Virus record (IMG/VR): IMGVR_UViG_3300045988_131422
Strand: one strand, 5' to 3'
DNA from: a virus
Length of the DNA: 42,839 nt
The notes beneath the pieces were generated by a model. The model had not been told where the DNA came from. It worked only from the letters and a program-made list of their open reading frames with translations, and did no database searches. Below are positions 1-42,839 of the stretch, piece by piece; the first letter of the stretch is position 1; the number at the start of each line of letters is the position of its first letter. The position numbers and the translations under genes were made by a program.

Positions 1-55
1 CAATGTAAACAGTGTTCATACAAATGGATCTGGTGGCAATATTCCACACAATAAC
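1..55. repeat. Terminal overlap: 1..55 is identical to 42785..42839 (circular closure, unit genome 42,784 bp)
   Basis: Base-by-base comparison of first and last 55 nt. An ORF reads continuously from 42612 across the junction to TAG 98..100. Confidence 0.95.
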
Positions 56-100
56 GTGCAACCATATTTAGTTGTTTTCTTTTGGCGAAGGATAAAATAG
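1..100 (+). CDS. Silent tail-fibre C-terminal cassette D, 3' part (5' part is 42612..42839)
   Basis: Frame continues ...NGSGGNIPHNNVQPYLVVFFWRRIK*. Same terminal motif as the expressed fibre end. Stop 98..100 abuts the stop of cassette C. Confidence 0.7.
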   Translation, partial: NVNSVHTNGSGGNIPHNNVQPYLVVFFWRRIK

Positions 101-379
101 CTACTTGATACGTCTCCAAAAGTAAGTTACCACGTAAGGTTGTACATTATCGTGAGGTTTGTTTCCGCCTGTTGGCCATGTTTGACCGTACCAATAATAT
201 TTAGTTTTATTAGCACGTTCAGTGGCTCTCGTAAAAGGCACGTCACTATATGAATTACCATATAACGCAGTGGTTACATCAGTTTGTTGGTCTAAGATCC
301 AATGCGTATGGCTCGGTAGCTCTTCACATGTAAGTTTATGAAAGTAGTTACCGCCAATCCATTCGGCAGCAAAGGACAT
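101..379 (-). CDS. Silent tail-fibre C-terminal cassette C (92 aa)
   Basis: MSFAAEWIGGNYFHKLTCEELPSHTH...DNVQPYVVTYFWRRIK*. Met lies inside the conserved 13-nt core and there is no SD. The ORF-track extension to 439 runs through site B and is not credible. Confidence 0.7.
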   Translation of the reverse strand: MSFAAEWIGGNYFHKLTCEELPSHTHWILDQQTDVTTALYGNSYSDVPFTRATERANKTKYYWYGQTWPTGGNKPHDNVQPYVVTYFWRRIK

Positions 380-381
380 AC
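369..381 (-). repeat. Putative recombination core, site C (GTATGTCCTTTGC on - strand)
   Basis: 13-nt core shared by all four cassette heads. Head-to-head with site B, 18 nt apart. Confidence 0.7.
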
Positions 382-399
382 CTATATGGCTGATTATAT

Positions 400-412
400 G
401 TATGTCCTTTAC
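400..412 (+). repeat. Putative recombination core, site B (GTATGTCCTTTAC)
   Basis: Same 13-nt core. Contains the ATG (402) of cassette B. Confidence 0.7.
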
Positions 413-704
413 ATCTTCTGGAACTGGGGGCGAATACAAGCATCAATTAAATTATTACGAGATGCCAAACCACGTGCATGTCGAATATGCAATGGTTGAA
501 GGTTACCCAGAATGGAACACTTTTACACCATCAGCATATTCAATGTTGTTTGGATGGCAAAGAGGTGATTACCGTGGCGATGTAACAACATATCATGCTG
601 CTAAAACTCCTTTAAACACCGCCACTTCAGACGAAGGAGGAAGTCAAAGTCACAATAACATTCAGCCTTATATCGTAGTTTATTTCTGGAGAAGAACAAA
701 GTAA
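402..704 (+). CDS. Silent tail-fibre C-terminal cassette B (100 aa)
   Basis: MSFTSSGTGGEYKHQLNYYEMPNHVH...HNNIQPYIVVYFWRRTK*. No SD upstream. Its stop (702..704) directly abuts the stop of the expressed fibre gene (705..707). Confidence 0.7.
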   Translation: MSFTSSGTGGEYKHQLNYYEMPNHVHVEYAMVEGYPEWNTFTPSAYSMLFGWQRGDYRGDVTTYHAAKTPLNTATSDEGGSQSHNNIQPYIVVYFWRRTK

Positions 705-2582
705 TCACTTGATTCTTTTCCAGAAGAATACTGTTATATATGGTTGAATGACATTATGCGCTTCGTTATTGCCAACATATGAGCCATATCTATTTTTATC
801 GTAATCATGAATAAATGGAGTAAATGCTCCTGATCGATTATTGTCTCCTAAATAAGTCATGTTATAGAATCCTGTATTACCGCCATATGCAGTAATAATA
901 TCCCAATCATGTGGACGGTGAGCGTGTGATGGCATTTCATTCAAAGATAACAAATGCTTATATTCTCCACCTTGAGATGTAGCAGTAAATGACATACTTG
1001 TACTACCATCGTTTCCAGTACCTTCTCCGACCAAAGTTCGACCTTGACCGAACTGTTCCCAAGTTCCACCCAAGAATGTTCCTGGGTTCTTTTTATCGTA
1101 TGTGATATAGACTGCGCCAACTGGGAATATTTTATTTAAAAACATTGGAGCTACAATATCGCCTAATACGGTTAGTGTATCTTTTTGGTTTCCATCTTGA
1201 CCGAAGAACGTTAATGATCTTCCATCTTTACCAAAGTTAATTAACGAGTAAGCAGGTGCTACAGTAAAGATTTGCCATGAGTAGTCATTCATGAACTTAT
1301 CCTTAACACCGAATGCCACTTCATAAGAATTTGTTGCGGATGTAAATAAATTACCTGCTTTGTAGTCTTGCTCAAGAGTATAGTTGTTATCCCATGAATT
1401 TATTTTCGTCCATGAACTAGCTCCACTCGCTCTATATTGGATATAGAATGATGTCACATTCTTATTTGATAAACTTGTAAAAGCGACTTTAAAATGCAGT
1501 AATGCATACGTTCCGCTAGCTTCATCAACCGCATAATTTGAATTAGCACGCTTTGCAGTTACATCAGTCAAACTTGGCGAGCTATATGCCGACACAGTAA
1601 CTGAACCACTCTTAGATGCGGTACGACCACGTGAATCTGTAACTGTGATTGTGTACGACAACTTGCCACTTCCCTGTACAGTACCTGTAGTAAATGAACT
1701 ATCATTGTATGTTTGTCCTTCAAATTTAGTTGATACAGATGTAACAGTTGAGCCTTGACTACCACTTGTAGCAATTGAGAACTTTATTCTTGATTGACTT
1801 TGAACATGTTGACCTATTCCTACGCAGATTGAATTTATATCAGATATCGAGACCGTTCCAACACTAGGAACGACTCCACTTCTTACTTTAATTGTTGCAT
1901 TTACTGATTTTGAGCCAACCGAAGTTGAACCACTGAATGTTTCTAATGTAAATGTAGCAATTCCGCTTGTCGAATTAGGTAAGTCCTTTTCCCATGCGGT
2001 AGGAATCGTATAAGAAAAAGTGGGTGTTAATGTCCCACTTATCGTTGTTAATTCACTTGTTTTACCATTCCATGTTGCGTAGATTTTATGTGTAAAGTTT
2101 TTTGAAGCACTCGAGCCATTAATATTTATAGTTTTACCACATTCAATGCTAGGGCTATCAATAGATATGCTTGATGCTCTTGGAATAGTTGTCAATTTAA
2201 CAGTACCACTGCAAGAACCAGTAATAGGTGCATAATATCCAGAGTTACTTCCACTGAAAGATGCGCTTGCTGAAATTGTTTTTGAACCATCTGCATCATG
2301 TGAAATAGTTACCGTTCCACTTTTTACACCAACAAGAGTTCCAGCTGGAACATTAGGTGTAAAGCTTTGATCTAACACTTGAGTACCATTCACGGATACT
2401 TTAAATGTTTCTGGAATTCCATTGTGTGTATGGTACTGCGTATTAGATCGAATACCAACCCACCACTCTACATATGATGTGTTGTTTTCAACAGAATAAG
2501 ATATTTCATTGATTCGTAATATTAACGAGTATTTATCCCACTGACCACTACCAATTTGTATTCCACCACTAAATTCTGCCAT
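705..2582 (-). CDS. Tail fibre / receptor-binding protein (625 aa), currently fused to cassette A (705..995)
   Basis: Last gene of the tail module. Ser/Thr-rich repeated beta modules. C-terminus [48 protein letters not shown] resembles tail-collar-type domains (from memory). Confidence 0.8.
985..997 (-). repeat. Putative recombination core, site A inside the expressed fibre gene (GTATGTCATTTAC on - strand)
   Basis: Encodes S-M-S-F at the constant/variable boundary. One mismatch to the other three cores. Confidence 0.65.
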
Positions 2583-5500
2583 TTAATTCCCCTACTTTCT
2601 TGAAGTCTAGCGAGCCATTTGCTCTTGGCACGAATCCAAATGCACCAACTTTCAAAGACTGTGTGAATTGTCCATCTGTGATGTACATTGTTTGATCGTT
2701 TATATAAGTAACTTTCGCGCCATTCTTTTGAATCGACCATTCTTGGTTTGTAATCTTAGTTTTAAATGCACTGTCTGATTTACCTAAAGTCAACGCATCA
2801 TTATCGAAAGACATATAACTGTTTACGTTGTCTGTGGTTTGCTTCAAACCATCCAATCTACCATTTACACTATTTATTTGGCCGTTCATTTCATTTTTAG
2901 CATCAGTCACGCTTTGATTAATTGACCACGTAAAATCGCTCTTAGTTTGGCTAAACTGAGTAGATACTTCTTCTTTATAATGATTCAAAGCCGAATTTGA
3001 TACGTAAGTTTCGCTAACTTTCGCAGTAATTTCATTCGCTTTTGTCTCAATGGCAGATTGTCGTTCTGTACGTTCTTCATTAACTGCCTCCCATGAGCTA
3101 TCACATACAGGAGTTGTATAAACTGTTGAAGCAGGGTTCTTATAAACCACTTTGTATCTAGTCCATAAATACTTACCATTTGACCAGGTAGGCATTGATT
3201 CAACCCATGATCCACCACTTTGAGTAGTCTTCGAATCACTCATGTAATACTGTTGAGTCATACTTGCTACACCTGTTCCAGTCGCACCAGTATCACCTTT
3301 AACTCCTTGAGGTCCAGCAGCACCTGTAGCGCCTTTATCACCTTTTATACCCTGTGGGCCAGTAGCTCCAGTTGCACCTTGTGGACCTGTTGCTCCGGTA
3401 GCTCCTCTATCACCTTTGTCACCCTTTGCGCCGTTAACACCCATACGAGCTACAGAATATCCAACAGTAGGAGCTCCACTTGTATAGTTAGTTGTAGTCT
3501 TAGTCCATAAATATGAACCAGCAGCAACAGCAGGAATATCTTTAACCCATGTTCCAGTAGGTACAGTTGTTCCAGATGTAGAAGCTTGGTATTCAACAGA
3601 TGTACTTGCAACTCCTCGACCGTCAAACTCACCTTTATTAGCTCTATCAGTTAAACTATTAGCTTTACTTAATGCACTTGATGCATTGCTATTCGCACTA
3701 TCTGCAGTTCCTTTAATTTCAGTAACTGAAGTAGCTTGTAACTTAATCGCCTCTGCATTTTGCTTAATTGCAGTTTCAGTTTTAGTAACACGATTTGTTA
3801 ATGCATTTAAATCTTTCTGAGCTTGTTCTGCGTTAGCTTTAGCCGTATCTGCAGTTGTTTGTGCAGTCTTAGCATTATTGATTGCAGTCTGTGCATTAGT
3901 TTGAGCAGTAGTTGCATCTGTCTGTGCTTTCTTGACTGCAGTTTCTGCATTAGTTAATCTAGTTTGAGCTTTTGTAATTTCACTCTCAGTCGCATCAACT
4001 CTACCAGTCACTGATTCTAGATTAGCTTTTGCATTTGCCAATTCTTTATTAGCATTGTCTAAGTTAGTTTGAGCACTGTCTGCTTTTTTCTTTGCTTCAT
4101 CTGCTAGAGTTTGAGCACTTTGAGCATTACTTAATGCAGTACTAGCTTGAGTTTGAGCATCCGTTGCTTTCTTTGTTACATCAATAATATCTTTCTGAGC
4201 TTTAGTTGTATCAGATTGCAACTTTTCAATTGAACTTGCTTGAGTTGTGATTGAATCGGCATTTTGTTTAATCTTGGTATTTAAACTACCTTCAATGCTT
4301 GTTAAATCACTCTTAGAAGCATAAGTTTCTGATACAGTAGTCGATAATTCACCGACTTTCTTTTCAATTTCTGTTGTAACATCTGCATGAATTGTTTTTG
4401 ATTCAGTAGTTAAATCAACCTTTGTAGCATATGTTTCTTTAACAGTAGCAATTTCACTAGCGTTGGCATTTGCCTTATCAACTGCATCTTGAATCTGTTG
4501 CTTTGAATCAGTGATATCACCTTTAATTGCATCAATTTGTTGTTGAGCTTTACCAGTGCTTGTATTTGCATCTTGTGCTAATTTCACTGCATCTTCAGAT
4601 TGTTTGTTAGCAGTACTTGCTAATCCATTTGCACTAGTTGCAAGCTTTTCAGCATCTTCAGCTTTGCCAAGTGCTTCTTTTGATTGCACATTTGCTTGAG
4701 ACACTTGAGTGTGAATCTCACCGATTTGCGCATCAATCTCATTCCAGGTATTATCAAATATAGCTTTCGTATACTTGATTTCACTAGGATTAGCATACGT
4801 ACATTTCCAACGTTTCCAAAGGAATTTATCTGATTGATAAACCACATTACCAACGAACCATTCGCCACCAATTAATTCGGTTTGTGATGTTGAATAATAG
4901 AATTGTTCTTCGGCACTCACAAATGACTGACCATCTTCCCCTTTAATTGCACTCCATCGGTATTTGGTTGGGTCATCACTGCCATATTGCTTTGAGTCAG
5001 AATACTGACCAATAAATTTACGATTTGAGTCTGTCAAACTGAAATCAACACGTCCATCTGAACTATTGGCATAGGCAATATGTACGTATGCGCTTGTTCC
5101 ATTCTGACCGTCCTGTAATCGCATTACGGTGACTTCTGCGCTTGCTTTAAGTATTTCACCACTCATTGCTTTAAATCGGTATACGGCCTTTTCTGTGAAA
5201 TCTGAAGCGTTGACTGTGATTGTTTGGCTAGTTGATAATTGCACACCATCTTTATACCAAATGATTGAATACTTAGATGTAATATCAACACCATCATTTT
5301 TAACTAATGCGGTAAGCTTAGTTGAATCTGAATCGGTCTTAAACAAAACTCCATTTGAAGATACAATTGAGCCTTCATAAACTTTCTTTAACTCAATCAT
5401 CTTGTTCATTTCACTGATCAAAGCCGAACTAATCTGTGATTGCTTTTCTTCAAAGTTGTCAAAAATAGTCTTGCACTTCTCGGAATCCGTGAAACAAATC

Positions 5501-6549
5501 TCTTGTTCCGTTATTCGTGCTTCTAAATATAAAGTAGGACTATACTCCGCATCTTCGATGGTAAATGTATCGCCAATATCAGCATCAATATATGCATCTA
5601 CATCGTATGTAACTTTAGGAACACAATTCTTTTTCAATTGAGCTAGTGCTTGACCATATAAGGTTTCTACACTGTCTGTTTCATAAGACCACACTAGCAC
5701 TGCATACATATCGTTTGAATGATTTGTTAATAACGTACTAGGAAATCTATCTCTAGATTGAGGTGCAAGTATGTTGTTACCTTGAACTTTATACAAAACA
5801 TTTCCATTTGAATCTTTTACAACACGGCCACTAATCGAGTTAAGTTGTAACCCATTATTACCCGTAGGTCTGATACCTGTATACAACTCTGTAATATCAC
5901 TTGTTTTAGTGATTCCGTAAACATCATTAGGATATCTTAAGATCGTACTGCGTTTATCTGTTCCCATACCTTGAACTGAATCTGAATGAGCACGATAAAT
6001 ATTCAACACAACATTCTTCAACGAGTAATCATCATTTAATTGAGTAATAAACTCTAGCTCTGCATCAAATACATTTGCGATTGAATACAATCTTGCAAGC
6101 ACTGTATCACTGCCAGTCCATTCGTGACTAATCTTCTTATTAGATACTTCATTTCGGCCAATTGTGAATGATTGCTCAAATCCATACGTACTAACATATT
6201 CTGCAAATGACATCGCTCTAGGCGCTTTATATGCATCTACATATTCATTCGTTAATTCAAGGCAAAGACCATAGGCGGTAACGTTTGTCGTGTTACCACC
6301 TTTTTCTACGTTCATGATCGTTAAATAATAGCCTTTGTTCTTTCTTGTAAAGCTCAGTTTATTTCCTTCAACTAAAAAGGCTGCATCATCATGTGCAGTC
6401 AATGTTGTAAATTCAAATGTATATGCCGAGCCTTTCAAGTATGTATGCAAGGTTTCATCAAAGTAATGCATTGCGCTAGGTACTGTATTGTCTAAAAAAG
6501 CTAGAACCTTGTCGTATGGAGTCAATACTGCTATTCTGATTTGTTCCAT
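2569..6549 (-). CDS. Tal-like tail tip / minor structural protein (about 1326 aa)
   Basis: ATG 6549 overlaps the Dit stop (TAATG) with GGAGG 10 nt upstream. N-terminal region resembles the prophage-tail (Tal) domain, followed by a long Ala/Thr/Gln coiled coil and a collagen-like run. Position after Dit. Confidence 0.75.
3271..3440 (-). repeat. Collagen-like Gly-X-Y repeat region within Tal
   Basis: [54 protein letters not shown]. Confidence 0.9.
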
Positions 6550-8075
6550 TATAACCATGCCTCCCTTATTCTAGCTTTCACTGTCGGCTTCGATTTTGAC
6601 CAACTAGAGCACGTAGTCTTTATTTCTGTAGTTCCTACTGGTGCTTTAAAATACTTAGTTCCTAGAACCTCATCTTGAGGTCTAGACATTCCGTTTACAT
6701 AAACGTGCGATGACTTACCATCAATTGTAATTTTCGTACCATTAGGATATCTATTAGGAATATCTCTCCATTTTGATACATTATTTTTTGTAAAATTGAT
6801 TACATCAAATCCCATCATTGACATCAGTTGATTACCGCCTCTATCACCCCATTGCTTGAACGCAATCTGAATTTTAGCGCACTTCATATTTGCAATTTCT
6901 GGAATGTAATAATTGTAATATCCTCCCCAGTAGAAGAATCGGATGTTTCCGCCTTCTTTTAACACATCGCAATGTCCCCAACTCCAATACCAAGGATTTT
7001 GTGTGTGTAAATGTGAAGTTGTATATGAGAAGTTTCTAAGCATTTTGCCGTTTGCCCAAAACTCATAATGTCCTGTATTGCCTACTGTATCTGTCTTGTA
7101 CCAGTTACAACCACATATCAATTTATTGTCTGCAGTTAAGAAGTTGATACACATTTCTCCTGTTTGCCCCATAAGACCCGCATAGAACAACAAATGAAAA
7201 TAACAATAGAAGTTCTGAGCACCACTTGTATCTCCATTTGAATCTGCAGGTATTACCAAGGTTCTTAATCCACCACTCGCAGACCCTTTTTTTGCTCCAA
7301 CAGTGCCAAATCCAATAAACTTTTGATTAAACCAAGTGTGTTCGGCTAATGTACCGTTCGAACCGTACTGAGGATGCATTACATCCGTTCCACCAGTGTC
7401 ATCTGCACAATTGTAAAAGTTGTTGATGCCAACTAAATGTTCGCTTTGTTGATATGTTTCTGAATCAAGTTCTTCAATTTTTCCATACTGCATGACACCT
7501 TCAGTTGATACGATACCAATATATCCGGTTTCAGATGTTGTCTGAACCTCATAATCAATACTTACAGGTACAGTTCCTTCATTGACAATGTTTAACACTC
7601 CATTAGTATCAGTAAATTCTTTTTCTGCGGTTGAATATTTGCATGGGTCTGAGCAATAGATTTCGATTTCACCGATTACGTTATTACTTCCGCCATCAAC
7701 TTGTGTGTTAGATGTCTTAGTTCCAATGAAATACTTGTCGCTTTCATCATTAAAAATGACTTTTACTTGCTCGCCACTCAACAATTTATTCATCTTGTTG
7801 TAAGCTTCTCGAAATTCTCTGCTTCCTCTAGCTCTCAACTGGTACTTAACAGTAATCGTTCTTGCAGGAGTTGTTTTATATCTGTAATAAGAACCATCCA
7901 TTCCATCTATTTCAGTATGTTTTACTTCTGATTCCATCAACTCACGTCCTGTTACAGAAAGTGTACGATATCCATCTATTTCATTTTCTAAATATACGCC
8001 ATTATATGACATGGCTTCTGTCGGTAGATTAGTACCGACGATGCCACTATTTACTGTATTTACGAATGCATACAT
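6549..8075 (-). CDS. Distal tail protein (Dit), long form with internal insertion (508 aa)
   Basis: Directly follows the TMP (TAATG overlap). N-terminus resembles the siphovirus tail-component family. Size suggests an extra carbohydrate-binding-type insertion. Confidence 0.65.
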
Positions 8076-29509: not shown

Positions 29510-29938
29510 CTATTCTTCTTGTTCTATTTCATTTATAACTACCATTACACATGGTTTCTGTGCATATCTCTTGAAGACATGCAGGTCTGATACTTGCTTA
29601 TCATCTTCGAAAGCCACTTTATTTAAAGAGTCCAGTACAACCTTTGCAATGTTGTCGGAATCTGGCTTCTTTTGTGGCTGGATTTCATTTGCGAGCATCT
29701 TATTTAGTTTCACTTTTGATACATTCTTAGGTGGTGAGAAATACGCGAAAATCTTCACTTCCAGGGACCCTTCCAGCATGCTTGGAGTGCCACACTGTTC
29801 CATGAAGCTTAATCGTACTAGATTCTCATATTCAACTGTTTTAGGTGGTGTATGCACACTTACATACTTACCACGATTAGAGAATCGAGGTCTTCCTTTG
29901 GACCCCGGTTCTCCTGGTACTACAAACTGATAACGCAT
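29510..29938 (-). CDS. rusA: RusA-family Holliday junction resolvase (142 aa)
   Basis: VPGEPGSKGRPRF...PDSDNIAKVVLDSLNKVAFEDDKQV. Confidence 0.8.
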   Translation of the reverse strand: MRYQFVVPGEPGSKGRPRFSNRGKYVSVHTPPKTVEYENLVRLSFMEQCGTPSMLEGSLEVKIFAYFSPPKNVSKVKLNKMLANEIQPQKKPDSDNIAKVVLDSLNKVAFEDDKQVSDLHVFKRYAQKPCVMVVINEIEQEE

Positions 29939-30744
29939 TATTCTTTGATTTCTCCGGTCACTGGATCTTCACCAGGCTGTTCCTGATATTCTGCATCAAA
30001 GAATTCATTTGGAACTTCTGTCATATCTTCTTCAATCGTTGTCTTGATTGATTCATCTGTATTCACCTGCTTAACGAATTCAGTTTTCAAAGGAGCATAT
30101 TTAAGCAATTTCTTTAAAACTGTCTTCTTGGCCATTTCATCAAAGTTTGTTTTCCATGGTCCACTTGAAAATGATTTTGAATATTTTTTCGCATGATCAA
30201 GAACATCTTCATACGACATGACCTGGAATCCTTGGCCACCATTCACTAATTTGAATGTAGCGTAATAATAGATTGGCTTACCTCGATTTGTTCTTGCAGG
30301 CTTATGTTTAAGTACTGGATCCATACCTAATTCGTACTCAAATTCATCATTTTCATAAACGACCTGAGCATCAATCATCTTGACTTCACCTGAACGATAT
30401 GCCAGGTCAATCAATCCTTTGTAGCCAATCTGGAACTGACAAGCTCCACCATACGGAATCAAATAGGCTTGTCCTAGTGGAGTGTTTGGTTCCAAGCCTA
30501 ATTGTGCTGCATTCATCATTGCAGCCAAGAATGACTGCGGAGTACATGATGCTAGCTTGGCATTATTAGATACTGCAGATAATGCGATTCGTGTGAAGCG
30601 TTCTGGAGTCATCACACTAGGCAATGCTTTTGCGATTTCTCCTGACATCACTGAGATATACTCCTTGATGGTCTTTGATTGCTTTTTGGTCACAGTGTTT
30701 GACTGCGTCTTTGCAATCATTCCTTGTTGATTTGTTGTTGTCAT
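29938..30744 (-). CDS. recT: RecT-family single-strand annealing protein (268 aa)
   Basis: TPERFTRIALSAV..QSFLAAMMNAAQLGLEP..QAYLIPYG..QIGYKGLIDLA. Confidence 0.88.
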   Translation of the reverse strand: MTTTNQQGMIAKTQSNTVTKKQSKTIKEYISVMSGEIAKALPSVMTPERFTRIALSAVSNNAKLASCTPQSFLAAMMNAAQLGLEPNTPLGQAYLIPYGGACQFQIGYKGLIDLAYRSGEVKMIDAQVVYENDEFEYELGMDPVLKHKPARTNRGKPIYYYATFKLVNGGQGFQVMSYEDVLDHAKKYSKSFSSGPWKTNFDEMAKKTVLKKLLKYAPLKTEFVKQVNTDESIKTTIEEDMTEVPNEFFDAEYQEQPGEDPVTGEIKE

Positions 30745-30758
30745 ATGTATTTATCCTC

Positions 30759-31697
30759 CTACTGTTCTTTGACTAAAAATCTTCTCATTTTTCTTTGCGT
30801 TAAGTATTGATCATAAAGTTCAGGCTCATCTTTTCTGAATTCTTTAGTATCGAATGTATTTGACACCGATGTTTTCCATGTAACTTTGAATTTGTCAGAT
30901 GTTCCAATACCAGAATCACCTAAGTAGTTCTTAACTTCATTCTCATGTTTTTTCTGAATATCCTGAAGCTCCTTGATTTTATCTTTGACAAGTTTCAATG
31001 CATCCAGTTCCTGCTGCAATGGAGTTAGATCCACAATGTTGTCTTCATCATTTTCTACTGGATGTAATTCACTGATTGCTTGTGCAGTAGAATCCGAACC
31101 ATCGATTGGCGGTTCAACATCTTTCTCAACGCAGTTCCAGAATTCTTTTTCTGCTTCAATCAATGCATTGACTTCTTCATCGCTTCTAATGACCTCGTAG
31201 CAATACAAGTCGACACCTGGAATATAAATAGCTATATACCACTTAGAAAGACCTGTAACCGCCATATAATGCATACACTGTGCATAATACTGAGGTGGAA
31301 TATTTCCTTTCTGATACATATCCTTGTTGTATTCAGACGTGGTCTTGATTTCTAGACCTGCATCCTCGCCAACTACCAATCTATCTACGTTGGCCAACAT
31401 GAATGGATGATCTACAGATTGAAACGAGAACCCGCTCTTTCTGCATTTCTTACCGGTTTCTTCTTCCCAACGTCTGGCCACATAAGCTTCCGCATCTCGA
31501 CCAAATCGCATACGCTCATTGTCGATATTCTTATGAATTCGGCCCGTCTTTTCGCACCACAATGCATAAGCCGATTTGTATTTGTTCATGCCTAGAACAG
31601 AACCGGCATCAGAGCCACCAATTCCCTTTAGACGATTGTCCAGCCACTCTTCATGAGTAGCTGGTAATTTATGTTTGATTACTTTATTCATCTTCAT
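30759..31697 (-). CDS. YqaJ-type (lambda Exo-like) recombination exonuclease (about 312 aa)
   Basis: GIGGSDAGSVLGMNKYKSAYALWCEKTG. Partner of RecT. Start refined to ATG 31697 (GAGGA 8 nt upstream). Confidence 0.8.
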   Translation of the reverse strand: MKMNKVIKHKLPATHEEWLDNRLKGIGGSDAGSVLGMNKYKSAYALWCEKTGRIHKNIDNERMRFGRDAEAYVARRWEEETGKKCRKSGFSFQSVDHPFMLANVDRLVVGEDAGLEIKTTSEYNKDMYQKGNIPPQYYAQCMHYMAVTGLSKWYIAIYIPGVDLYCYEVIRSDEEVNALIEAEKEFWNCVEKDVEPPIDGSDSTAQAISELHPVENDEDNIVDLTPLQQELDALKLVKDKIKELQDIQKKHENEVKNYLGDSGIGTSDKFKVTWKTSVSNTFDTKEFRKDEPELYDQYLTQRKMRRFLVKEQ

Positions 31698-31797
31698 TTG
31701 ATTCATCCTCTTTTTCTTCTTCTGGTTCACCTGCATCATCGATATACCGGTTGTCGTTCCATTCTCTCCAGTCATCGATATCCTTAAAGAATGGCAT
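31684..31797 (-). CDS. Small acidic ORF (37 aa)
   Basis: MPFFKDIDDWREWNDNRYIDDAGEPEEEKEDESNEDE*. AGGAG 8 nt upstream. Confidence 0.4.
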   Translation of the reverse strand: MPFFKDIDDWREWNDNRYIDDAGEPEEEKEDESNEDE

Positions 31798-38221: not shown

Positions 38222-39301
38222 ATGCCTATTTATGAGCGTAAACACAATGGAAAGAAACAGTGGAGATTCCGCTGCTATTATACTGATTTTAACGGGAACC
38301 GTGTTCAGAAACAATCCAAATGGTTTGATATGAAGAAGGATGCAGTTCAAGCAGAAGCTATATTTGTGCAAACGAAAGCAGAAGGAGATCAACGTGTTAC
38401 ATTTTATGAAGTGACGTTGAAATGGTATGAATTTAAGTCTAGAACGTTGAAACCATCCACACTGGATACGAAAAGAGTGTACCTGAATATGTTGTCTCCA
38501 CTTAATGATAAAAAGATGTCCAAGATTACATATCTTGATATTGATAACTTTTTTGAATTGCCACAAATCAAATCTTATAAGTATTCGACTAAAATGACTT
38601 TATTAACGAATCTTAGAAATATCTTTAGATTTGCGAAGAAGCACTATGGAATTGTCAATGATCCATTTTTTAAGATGGCTCCATTAATTAAGCCTGTAGC
38701 CACTGAGGCTAAGAAGCTTGAAATCGTGTCTAAAAGTGATTTTAAGACACTTTTTGAATACGCAGTAACATCTAGAGATGGAGCGTGGAAAGATACGGCA
38801 TACGCGATTTGGACTATGTATATGACAGGCATGCGTGTGTCTGAATGTTTATCTTTAACCTTTGAGGATTTCGATGGTAAATACATCCATATTCGCAGAC
38901 AGTATATTCGTGGTAAGTGGCAGACACCTAAGACCAAGAATTCAATTCGTAAGATTGCGGTTGATGAAAAGACAAAATCGTTTATTTATGAATTGAAGAA
39001 ATACTATTCTTCTTTTGATGAATTTGAAGAGACGTGGTTTATATTTGGTGGATATAGACATATGGATCCAGAAATATTAAGATGCAGGAAAAACAAATTG
39101 TGTGCAGAAGCTGGAGTTCCTGAATTCAATATTCATGCGTTAAGGCACTCACATGCTTCAAATTTAATCGAGGCGGGTGTAAATATGTACAAGATATCGA
39201 AACGTCTAGGACACTCTTCTATACGTACTACAATGGATATCTATGGACACTTGATTGACACTGAAGAAGATGAGGTTTTGAATGCAATTTCAAATTTTTA
39301 A
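38222..39301 (+). CDS. int: Tyrosine integrase (359 aa)
   Basis: TGMRVSE, HALRHSHAS, LGHSSIRTTMDIYGH catalytic motifs. Arm-binding-type N-terminus. Adjacent attP-like region. Confidence 0.92.
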   Translation: MPIYERKHNGKKQWRFRCYYTDFNGNRVQKQSKWFDMKKDAVQAEAIFVQTKAEGDQRVTFYEVTLKWYEFKSRTLKPSTLDTKRVYLNMLSPLNDKKMSKITYLDIDNFFELPQIKSYKYSTKMTLLTNLRNIFRFAKKHYGIVNDPFFKMAPLIKPVATEAKKLEIVSKSDFKTLFEYAVTSRDGAWKDTAYAIWTMYMTGMRVSECLSLTFEDFDGKYIHIRRQYIRGKWQTPKTKNSIRKIAVDEKTKSFIYELKKYYSSFDEFEETWFIFGGYRHMDPEILRCRKNKLCAEAGVPEFNIHALRHSHASNLIEAGVNMYKISKRLGHSSIRTTMDIYGHLIDTEEDEVLNAISNF

Positions 39302-41713: not shown

Positions 41714-42607
41714 ATGCTATATTCTGACAAATTACATTCTTGGCTTCAAGAAAAGAAAATCTATCTAAAATACAGCACTTACACAAATTATTGTAATGTG
41801 ATTCATAATCACGTATTGCCAACACTTGGCACATATAAAATTGAAGAATTGAATAACGATATTCTGCAAGAGTTTATTCTTCAAAAACTTGAGAATGGTC
41901 GTAAAGACGGAAAAGGTGGCATTTCTTTTAAATATGCCAAAGATATTATTCAAATTTTGAAGTTCACACTTCCATTCAAAGTCGATATTCAACTTCCATA
42001 CCATCCTCCTACGGCGGTAGAAATTTTTGAAAAAGAAAATCAAATCTCATTGATTAATCACCTCCAATCTGAGATTAATTACAAAAACTTTGGAATCCTG
42101 TTATGCATCCACACTGGAATACGCATAGGTGAACTATGCGCTTTGAAATGGTCTGATATAAATATACAGACCAAACTTTTAAAAATTGACAAAACCATGA
42201 TACGTACATACACAAAAGAAGACGGTAGTCATCTTTCAATAACACCGCCTAAATCACGTTCTAGCACTCGTATGATTCCCTTGAACACATGGATAATGCA
42301 TTATGCAATACTTCTACAAGGCGATGCAGATAACTATGTATTAACGAATCGAGATAAGCCGATAGAGCCAAACAAATACAGACTTTACTACAATAGAATC
42401 CTTAAAGAACTCGAATTACCACACCTCAAATTCCATGCACTCAGACATACTTTCGCAACAAGATGCATTGAGTGTGGTTGCGACTATAAATCACTTAGTG
42501 AATTGCTTGGCCACTCCAATGTATCAATCACAATGAACATCTACGTGCATCCTCAAATGGAATTAAAGCGTAAATGTGTAGAGCTACTTTGCGATTACTA
42601 CAAGTAA
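41714..42607 (+). CDS. Tyrosine recombinase (297 aa), candidate shufflon invertase
   Basis: TGIRIGE (Arg), HALRHTFAT (His-x-x-Arg), LGHSNVSITMNIYVH (His...Tyr). Stop lies 2 nt before recombination core D. Confidence 0.85.
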   Translation: MLYSDKLHSWLQEKKIYLKYSTYTNYCNVIHNHVLPTLGTYKIEELNNDILQEFILQKLENGRKDGKGGISFKYAKDIIQILKFTLPFKVDIQLPYHPPTAVEIFEKENQISLINHLQSEINYKNFGILLCIHTGIRIGELCALKWSDINIQTKLLKIDKTMIRTYTKEDGSHLSITPPKSRSSTRMIPLNTWIMHYAILLQGDADNYVLTNRDKPIEPNKYRLYYNRILKELELPHLKFHALRHTFATRCIECGCDYKSLSELLGHSNVSITMNIYVHPQMELKRKCVELLCDYYK

Positions 42608-42609
42608 AT

Positions 42610-42622
42610 GTATGTCCTTTGC
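42610..42622 (+). repeat. Putative recombination core, site D (GTATGTCCTTTGC)
   Basis: Same 13-nt core. Contains the ATG (42612) of cassette D. Confidence 0.7.
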
Positions 42623-42839
42623 ACCTAATTCCGTAGGTGGTGAATACTATCATACATTATCATATTCTGAAATGCCTGCTCACGCACACGAAGTTGGTAT
42701 ATGGGATACATCTGGGTCTTTAAAGACTAATCCGTGGGAATTTATGACTATTTACGGTTCGCATCATTCTGATGGTCAAAGTCACAATGTAAACAGTGTT
42801 CATACAAATGGATCTGGTGGCAATATTCCACACAATAAC
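42612..42839 (+). CDS. Silent tail-fibre C-terminal cassette D, 5' part (90 aa in total with 56..100)
   Basis: MSFAPNSVGGEYYHTLSYSEMPAHAHEVGIWDTSGSLKTNPWEF... No SD. Continues across the circular junction. Confidence 0.7.
   Translation, partial: MSFAPNSVGGEYYHTLSYSEMPAHAHEVGIWDTSGSLKTNPWEFMTIYGSHHSDGQSHNVNSVHTNGSGGNIPHNN
42785..42839. repeat. Terminal overlap copy (identical to 1..55)
   Basis: See 1..55. Confidence 0.95.

Follow-up and report, generated by a model that had tools for sequence, protein, structure and literature searches.

A probable tyrosine-recombinase shufflon at the tail-fibre gene of a temperate siphovirus of Erysipelotrichaceae

Organization of the fibre gene and its cassettes

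We examined the tail-fibre locus of the IMG/VR virus record IMGVR_UViG_3300045988_131422, whose 42,839 nucleotides (nt) are referred to throughout as the window. At this locus, a fibre gene and a gene for a tyrosine recombinase flank three fragments that resemble the end of the fibre. The record is a circular assembly with a 55-nt terminal overlap, positions 1–55 being equal to 42785–42839, and the genome is 42.8 kilobases (kb) long; because the record is circular, it is legitimate to join 42612..42839 to 56..100, as one of the fragments requires. An earlier reading of the sequence, hereafter the original prediction, had proposed a shufflon here, in which a tyrosine recombinase would place alternative C-terminal ends on a constant fibre part of 529 amino acids (aa). 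The cassette coordinates, the Met-Ser-Phe (MSF) starts, and the shared end motif that it described were all reproduced from the sequence. The features are as follows.

705..2582, minus strand: gene for the tail fibre or receptor-binding protein, 625 aa
996..2582, minus strand: constant part of the fibre, residues 1–529, with DUF859 (Pfam, 2e-43) and the first third of Gp10_C
705..995, minus strand: cassette A, the expressed C-terminal end, residues 530–625 (96 aa plus stop), from translation
402..704, plus strand: silent cassette B, 100 aa, matching Pfam Gp10_C positions 55–139
101..379, minus strand: silent cassette C, 92 aa, matching Pfam Gp10_C positions 57–139
42612..42839 joined to 56..100 across the circular junction, plus strand: silent cassette D, 90 aa, from translation, with its stop codon at 98–100
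42612..42839 and 56..379: invertible segment D-C, cassettes D and C tail to tail
402..995: invertible segment B-A, cassettes B and A tail to tail
382–399: 18-nt spacer between the head-to-head sites 2 and 3, supplying the left arms of both
42610..42622, plus strand: site 1, GTATGTCCTTTGC, heading cassette D, 2 nt after the recombinase stop codon
369..381, minus strand: site 2, GTATGTCCTTTGC, heading cassette C
400..412, plus strand: site 3, GTATGTCCTTTAC, heading cassette B
985..997, minus strand: site 4, GTATGTCATTTAC, inside the fibre gene; the expression site
41714..42607, plus strand: tyrosine recombinase, candidate shufflon invertase, 297 aa (Pfam Phage_integrase, 3.9e-29, and Phage_int_SAM_3)

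In the fibre, MSF begins at residue 530, leaving a constant part of 529 aa as predicted. Cassettes B, C, and D, all of which occupy the interval from the fibre stop codon to the recombinase gene, each open with MSF and close with QPYxxVxFWRRxK-stop. The layout was likewise correctly predicted, with D abutting C at 100/101 and B abutting A at 704/705, both tail to tail, and with 18 nt between the head-to-head sites. The four 13-nt sites were all found at the positions and on the strands foreseen. Their shared core, GTATGTCMTTTRC, occurs exactly four times in the genome, and allowing one mismatch adds none; shuffled sequences gave an expectation of 0.24, and none of 100 shuffles reached four.

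Upstream of B, C, or D there was no purine run resembling a Shine-Dalgarno sequence, whereas the fibre gene (GGGGA) and the recombinase gene (GAGG) each have one, which bears out for these three cassettes the claim that the fragments lack such a signal. Each of the three also matches only positions ~55–139 of the 139-position Gp10_C profile. These properties bear on the alternative that each fragment is translated by itself into a small protein, such as a fibre-tip adaptor or a decoy. Each fragment does begin with ATG and is annotated as a gene by gene callers, and in the case of D the ATG follows the recombinase stop by 4 nt, so that translational coupling is conceivable. However, none has a Shine-Dalgarno sequence, the partial domain becomes complete only upon fusion, and other genomes carry the same cassettes as in-frame fusions (see below). 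We regard this alternative as extremely improbable.

The domain split at residue 530 is Gp10_C (Pfam PF21939, the C-terminal domain of T4 gp10), which spans residues 482–624. The homology was also seen against PDB 2FKK (E = 1.2e-5), and the top Foldseek matches were to T4 gp10. The original prediction had placed the break inside a tail-collar-like domain; the break does fall inside a domain, but that domain is Gp10_C, and the Pfam search gave no match to the tail-collar family. When each cassette was joined in silico to the constant part, the predicted fusions scored 85.7 (A), 90.8 (B), 80.3 (C), and 88.2 (D) bits against a gathering cut-off of 27, over positions 2–139, and all four rebuild a complete T4 gp10-like C-terminal domain. 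An AlphaFold monomer model (52 homologues) had a mean predicted local distance difference test score (pLDDT) of 61.6, with values of 84–92 for the constant strands and for the last strand (QPYITVFFW). An HxH motif is retained in most cassettes. The model is consistent with a conserved scaffold carrying a hypervariable, probably trimer-dependent tip. The final strand QPYxxVxFWRR probably packs against the constant first third of the domain. By analogy with other fibre switches, the cassettes would change receptor specificity.

Arrangements of the array in other assemblies

Relatives of the locus were collected with two queries. The recombinase retrieved 53 IMG/VR loci at 66–98% identity, and the constant region's 3′ end together with the core retrieved 57 IMG/VR and 42 human-gut metagenome stretches. 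Arrays are written below with plus or minus for the orientation of each cassette and with "(fused)" after the cassette joined to the constant part. In this notation, the window reads D+ C- B+ A-(fused).

Two contigs from a single assembly, ENA ERZ27262637, carry other arrangements of the same phage. The first, k119_100033 (L122), was found through an exact match to the recombinase protein (100% identity) and is 99–100% identical to the window at the nucleotide level. Its array reads recombinase, D+ C-, spacer, A+, with A lying silent where the window has B, and this is the arrangement predicted as the product of B/A inversion. The second, k119_79495 (L178), was found through cassette A as a free gene and reads recombinase, B+ A-. 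Over 71 nt, the recombinase flank of this contig matches window positions 42539–42609 at 100% identity, and its cassette B agrees with that of the window at 305 of 305 bases. Two contigs of one metagenome therefore join an identical recombinase flank at the core to different cassettes, D in L122 and B in L178, and cassette A is silent in both. L178 is what one would expect from L122 after a further inversion between the outermost sites, an event that would also place D at the expression site. The inversions named in the original prediction (B-A, D-A, or D-C followed by a second step) were correctly reasoned, and public assemblies of this phage contain predicted products.

Further contigs showed the same behaviour. 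L125 and L126 share a 2.9 kb flank that is 99.97% identical and differ by inversion of one two-cassette segment (99.8% identity), with breaks exactly at the cores, while L126 and L127, themselves 99.8% identical, carry segments in a different order. The exact B protein was present on 22 contigs, beside the recombinase, in mid-array, or beside the fibre, and in both orientations, and it was always tail to tail with A. Other relatives read C+ D- x+ y-(fused) in L001, in which the D-C segment is inverted relative to the window with breakpoints at the cores, .. B+ A- C+ D-(fused) in L003, C+ A-(fused) in L008, and .. C-(fused) in L124. By blastn, pairs of relatives that are ~90% identical (L005/L010, L021/L050, L015/L034, and the window/L001) differ by inversions ending on cores, and the first three of these pairs are exact inversion isoforms of each other.

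Each of the four cassette types was found fused to the constant part in some relative. In addition to A, which is fused in the window and in L008, D-type cassettes are fused in L003, L006, and L172, B-type cassettes in L094, L141, and L155, and a C-type cassette in L124. Dozens of different cassettes were joined to the 3′-terminal 26 nt of the constant part in the 57 IMG/VR and 42 gut-metagenome stretches. Together with the same-sample isoforms L122 and L178, these fused relatives support the original reading of the locus as a tyrosine-recombinase shufflon that places alternative ends on the fibre. In all readable arrays, the first core lies within a few bases of the recombinase stop and the last site lies inside the fibre gene, with 2–9 cassettes in the array. 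Clustering at 70% identity yielded at least 56 cassette types. Relatives differ in cassette number (2 to 9), which means that cassettes are lost and gained over time.

Contigs often break off within the array, and their ends carry a signature of their own. Downstream of a core, 11 contig ends lie exactly 55, 77, 99, or 119 nt from its first base, among them that of the k119 contig L122 at 119 nt, and three more contigs end at the last base of a core. These four lengths are typical final k values of the assemblers metaSPAdes and MEGAHIT. Ends placed one k-mer from the core are what a de Bruijn graph gives when a cassette has several left contexts, or a flank has several cassettes, in one sample, and by this pattern the shared sequence is bounded by the two ends of the core.

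These arrangements have to be set against the possibility of a fossil array, in which duplicated fragments were rearranged long ago, the locus is now static, and the recombinase is a second integrase or an Xer-like dimer resolvase. In keeping with that possibility, NCBIfam places the enzyme nearest to Xer-like recombinases (73 bits, below every family cut-off), and most of the compared pairs are only ~90% identical, so that many inversions are old. Against it, a single assembly holds two arrangements of a phage that is 99–100% identical, the pair with 99.97% identical flanks differs by an inversion, and contig ends cluster exactly k nt from cores in many independent assemblies. The silent cassettes moreover keep intact reading frames and an invariant non-coding GT (see below), and the genome already has a separate arm-type integrase. 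A fossil array is, in our judgment, very unlikely.

Two candidate cases of isoforms were discarded. L145 and L147, two contigs of one assembly (OBJP01), carry different fused cassettes, but their constant regions are only 87% identical and they represent two strains. L120 has a scaffold gap inside its array and was uninformative.

A distinct type of junction was noted at the ends of the window, which coincide with the end of CACAATAAC within cassette D. Exactly this base is also where L123 and the first block of scaffold L120 terminate. In L121 (JGI 3300029251), the sequence runs on from the end of CACAATAAC into the 3′ part of B and from there straight into A, forming a D/B hybrid without the tail of D, C, the spacer, and the head of B. 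These junctions point to a deletion, recurrent or co-circulating, between direct repeats of 9 nt that lie in the conserved 3′ ends of the cassettes, away from the cores; the alternative is an assembly shortcut. In L023, the recombinase 3′ flank appears twice in inverted orientation (4496, plus; 5194, minus) at the contig end, which looks like a fold-back assembly artefact from an invertible region.

The recombination site and the adjacent recombinase

Site conservation was quantified as information content over 195 unique sites. Positions 1–7 (GTATGTC) are invariant, and position 8 varies freely among A, C, and T. Conservation in the right arm covers positions 9–13 and 16, each with 1.55–2.0 bits, giving the pattern N-TTT-A/G-C-N-N-C. 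The left arm mostly carries less than 0.5 bit except at −2, −5, and −7, with weak preferences for A at −2, T at −5, G at −6, and A at −7. A relaxed search anchored on ATG-NNN-TTY gave the same picture of conservation. Thus the 13-nt core of the original prediction stands as to its four copies, but the site is really an invariant 7-base-pair (bp) crossover heptamer with a conserved right arm and a weak left arm upstream.

The right arm doubles as coding sequence, and constraint on the protein may account for part of its conservation. In the core's Ser-Phe codons, however, the synonymous codons TTC (Phe) and AGY (Ser) were used at none of 160 unique sites, although they make up 37% (TTC) and 32% (AGY) of those codons in the genome. 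This corresponds to P ~1e-33 for 195 sites, a significance that is overestimated because the sites are kin by descent. Invariance extends to the GT preceding the ATG, a dinucleotide that does not code in silent cassettes. Together, the avoidance of TTC and AGY and the invariant non-coding GT indicate that the core is constrained at the DNA level and not by the protein alone.

Comparison of rearranged arrays located the crossover within the site. The A at core position 8 moves along with cassette A in L122 and L178, and position 8 tracks the cassette across L124–L133 too. At the recombinase-proximal site, B retains TTTAC and D retains TTTGC. Positions 8–13 thus travel with the cassette while the left flank stays, which places the exchange within positions 1–7, GTATGTC. 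In a subset of relatives (L027, L030, L040–L044, and L115, with 61–93% recombinase identity), GTATGAC, encoding Met-Thr-Phe, replaces GTATGTC at the sites examined. No mixing of heptamers within one locus was seen among the scored loci, and a by-eye reading of sites at the GTATGAC loci agrees. One heptamer per locus is expected if the heptamer is the overlap region that must match between partners during strand exchange by a tyrosine recombinase. The head-to-head sites lie 31 nt apart from start to start (18-nt spacer) also in L001, L003, L028, and L048, with different spacer sequences, and this fixed spacing may reflect the footprint of two left arms.

Breakpoints as narrow as these also bear on a further alternative, namely that cassettes are exchanged between co-infecting phages by homologous or RecT-mediated recombination at the conserved cassette ends rather than by site-specific inversion. 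The phage encodes a RecT/YqaJ-exonuclease module, cassette repertoires vary among relatives (at least 56 types), and the D/B hybrid in L121 has its junction in 9 nt common to both cassettes, close to the conserved 3′ end rather than at a core. The observed rearrangements, however, invert or permute the same cassettes rather than replace them. Their breakpoints fall within 7–13 nt of identity, with unrelated flanks on either side, and this length would be a very small substrate for homology-driven exchange. Each scored locus, moreover, holds a single heptamer, as strand exchange by a tyrosine recombinase predicts. We therefore give homologous exchange very little credence as the source of the rearrangements, though it probably contributes to cassette gain and loss over longer times.

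The enzyme adjacent to the array had been called a tyrosine recombinase in the original prediction, and the Pfam matches and a complete catalytic set (R137, K180, H241, R244, H267, and Y277) agree. Its motifs align to the Int protein of Tn1549, which is also its best PDB match (6EMY). The protein is armless, consisting only of a SAM-like N-terminal domain and the catalytic domain, and ends 20 aa after the catalytic Y277. It is 25% identical to the phage's own integrase (38222..39301). In related loci with readable arrays, the recombinase gene lies directly upstream of the cassettes. This invariable adjacency and the properties of the sites, with one heptamer per locus, lead us to infer that 41714..42607 encodes the catalyst of the inversions.

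Other enzymes were considered. No serine recombinase or resolvase domain and no reverse transcriptase domain was found in the 29 open reading frames scanned with Pfam, small open reading frames lying outside the scan, and a serine invertase or a diversity-generating retroelement was set aside as the cause on this basis. Recombinase homologues in Bacteroidales genomes (L116–L119, 33–40% identity) were also set aside, as no cassette array follows them. Distant homologues (36–38% identity), likewise with no cassette array after them, occur in two uncultured human-faecal phage records. In one, L134, the recombinase gene is bracketed by 29-nt inverted repeats that are 97% complementary (1576–1604 and 2968–2996), and in the other, L135, by 24-nt inverted repeats that are 100% complementary (1063–1086 and 2479–2502). 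In both records, the recombinase gene may lie inside its own invertible segment.

Separately, we note that cassette D, on the same strand as the recombinase gene, has its ATG 4 nt beyond the TAA stop of that gene (42605–42614). Any cassette in this first position could be translated weakly through re-initiation, which would release a free fibre-tip fragment.

Proposed switch, comparison with known systems, and genome context

We consider it highly probable that the locus is an active multiple-inversion shufflon of a temperate siphovirus infecting Holdemanella or related Erysipelotrichaceae. Sites on opposite strands are inverted repeats, and in the proposed mechanism recombination between them would invert the intervening DNA. 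The fibre promoter, the ribosome-binding site, and the first 529 codons lie outside the array, and the cassette that adjoins the fixed site in the fibre gene would be read in frame (..G-S-T-S/M-S-F..). Any of the four cassettes could reach this expression site by one or two inversions. Each supplies the last two-thirds of a T4 gp10-like C-terminal domain, comprising the HxH motif, a hypervariable middle, and the conserved final β-strand. A phage population could in this way carry up to four receptor specificities, a form of bet-hedging on host range. Switching would most plausibly take place in the prophage state.

Several points count against this proposal. The isoforms come from assembled contigs, not reads, and two close co-resident strains in fixed arrangements would look alike, although such strains would still require past inversions at the cores. 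The putative connection between recombinase and sites is drawn from their constant adjacency and from heptamer uniformity within loci. Sites in direct repeat are present (those of D and B, and those of C and A), and the enzyme, which would have to avoid deletion between them, lacks the extra C-terminal domain invoked for Rci. In the structural model, the middle of the cassette has a pLDDT of 40–60, a low confidence, and the model was not used to describe the variable tip. Finally, promoter and terminator scans gave fewer matches than shuffled sequences and were not used as evidence.

The original prediction implied that such a shufflon would be new for a siphovirus of Gram-positive type, but the Rin system precedes it. 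Rin is a phage-encoded tyrosine-invertase shufflon of a receptor-binding protein, described by Mavrich et al. in 2018 in Bifidobacterium breve and Bifidobacterium longum prophages (PMC6109161), and a Rin-type shufflon was found again in 2022 in clade-1 prophages of Eggerthella lenta (PMC8778435). The two systems have much in common, and no architectural feature of Rin is missing here. Both belong to temperate siphoviruses of Gram-positive gut bacteria, and in both an armless tyrosine recombinase (XerD-like in Rin) that is distinct from the integrase flanks promoterless cassettes for the C-terminus of a receptor-binding protein, with the constant N-terminal gene on the opposite side of the array. 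Every cassette opens with a short asymmetric repeat that recurs inside the full-length gene, and inversion variants occur at the repeats, those of Rin having been seen among prophages and virions.

The systems differ in host phylum, which is Bacillota (Erysipelotrichaceae) here and Actinomycetota for Rin, and in site, which is GTATGTC-NTTTAC here and the 11-bp rix, TTCCCTAACCC, in Rin (PMC6109161). The protein also differs, with DUF859 and a Gp10_C domain split inside its fold here and a TP901-1/1358-like protein or H-type lectin cassettes in Rin, and the cassettes here form tail-to-tail pairs with 18-nt spacers. Neither the rix site nor the TP901-1/1358-like protein by which orthology to Rin would be recognized is present at this locus. 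We conclude that the Erysipelotrichaceae phages carry an undescribed shufflon family, of a kind of switch already known from Rin. Full-text literature searches found no description of this family, and a systematic survey of programmed inversions states that viruses were outside its scan (PMC9881135).

The Mu, P1, p15B, and e14 switches (Gin, Cin, Min, and Pin) likewise swap the C-terminal part of a fibre by inversion (Sc/Sv) and alter host range, and p15B Min acts on multiple segments. Their enzymes are serine recombinases of the resolvase/invertase family, in contrast to the tyrosine recombinase here. Serine invertases use dyad sites of ~26 bp and a Fis-bound enhancer. In those systems, the inverted segments include a fibre-assembly chaperone (U/U′), whereas the cassettes here are only 66–108 aa and have no chaperone.

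In the plasmid R64 shufflon, the tyrosine recombinase Rci drives multiple inversions, and its catalytic Arg-His-Arg-Tyr set is present here. In the R64 site sfx, a conserved core of 7 bp is combined with a right arm that is conserved and a left arm that varies (PMC11852207), the same architecture as found at this locus, and in both systems the invertible segments carry two opposite C-terminal ends for the constant N-terminus of a surface adhesin, in R64 the pilV product that chooses the partner cell. R64, however, is an enterobacterial IncI plasmid whose target is the pilV adhesin of a type IV pilus, whereas here the element belongs to a phage of a Gram-positive host and acts on a tail fibre. 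Rci has an extra C-terminal domain proposed to enforce inversion only (PMC11852207), and the 297-aa enzyme here has none. The site sequences are unrelated, and in the left arm here an A at −2, a T at −5, and a G at −6 are partly retained.

These findings extend phage tyrosine-invertase shufflons of receptor-binding proteins from prophages of Actinomycetota to phages that infect gut commensals of the phylum Bacillota (Holdemanella, Floccifex, and further Erysipelotrichaceae), and they indicate that the shufflon is common and currently active in human gut metagenomes. As consequences, assemblies break at the shufflon, silent cassettes are annotated as small "genes," and a prediction of host range from one assembled fibre sequence captures only one of several states. 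The crossover is narrowed to a 7-bp heptamer, in an asymmetric sfx-like site served by an enzyme much smaller than Rci, and with such an enzyme the question of inversion-only selectivity becomes directly testable. The large natural library of interchangeable gp10-like tips with one splice point is also a resource for engineering fibre specificity.

More tentatively, and with doubt outweighing confidence, we suggest that this is an independently evolved and widespread family in Erysipelotrichaceae phages (2–9 cassettes per genome and at least 56 types in human-gut metagenomes), in which a compact 297-aa invertase acting on an sfx-like site inverts without the C-terminal domain of the Rci type. 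If so, directionality would be set by site asymmetry alone or by some other factor, and the enzyme with its ~20-bp site would make a small orthogonal addition to the shufflon tools of synthetic biology.

The rest of the genome (36% G+C) has the gene content of a temperate siphovirus. The fibre gene sits downstream of the tape-measure, Dit, and Tal genes. Other features are listed here.

Window, by Pfam scan: structural and packaging genes for the small and large terminase, SPP1-type portal, scaffold protein, and tail tube protein
Window: tail genes for the tape measure protein, Dit (Sipho_tail), and a 1329-aa Tal-like protein with collagen repeats
Far side of the cassette array: holin and amidase
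38222..39301: arm-type integrase with an Arm-DNA-bind_4 domain
29938–31775: RecT and YqaJ-exonuclease recombination module

Prophage copies point to Holdemanella or related Erysipelotrichaceae as the probable host, since such copies are present in Holdemanella (one genome, with the recombinase 93% identical), Floccifex (74%), and further Erysipelotrichaceae genomes. All metagenome matches came from human gut samples. A DNA search with window positions 1–3000 against 50,697 GenBank phage records gave zero matches, and a protein search with the recombinase found no relative above 40% identity among cultured phages.

The RecT/YqaJ module (29938–31775) could aid cassette gain, loss, and hybrid formation over longer times. 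The 1329-aa protein encoded upstream of the fibre gene (2569–6558) has collagen-like repeats and an alanine-zipper match, and its length ranges from 1274 to 1448 aa in relatives, so that a second tail component is also strain-variable.

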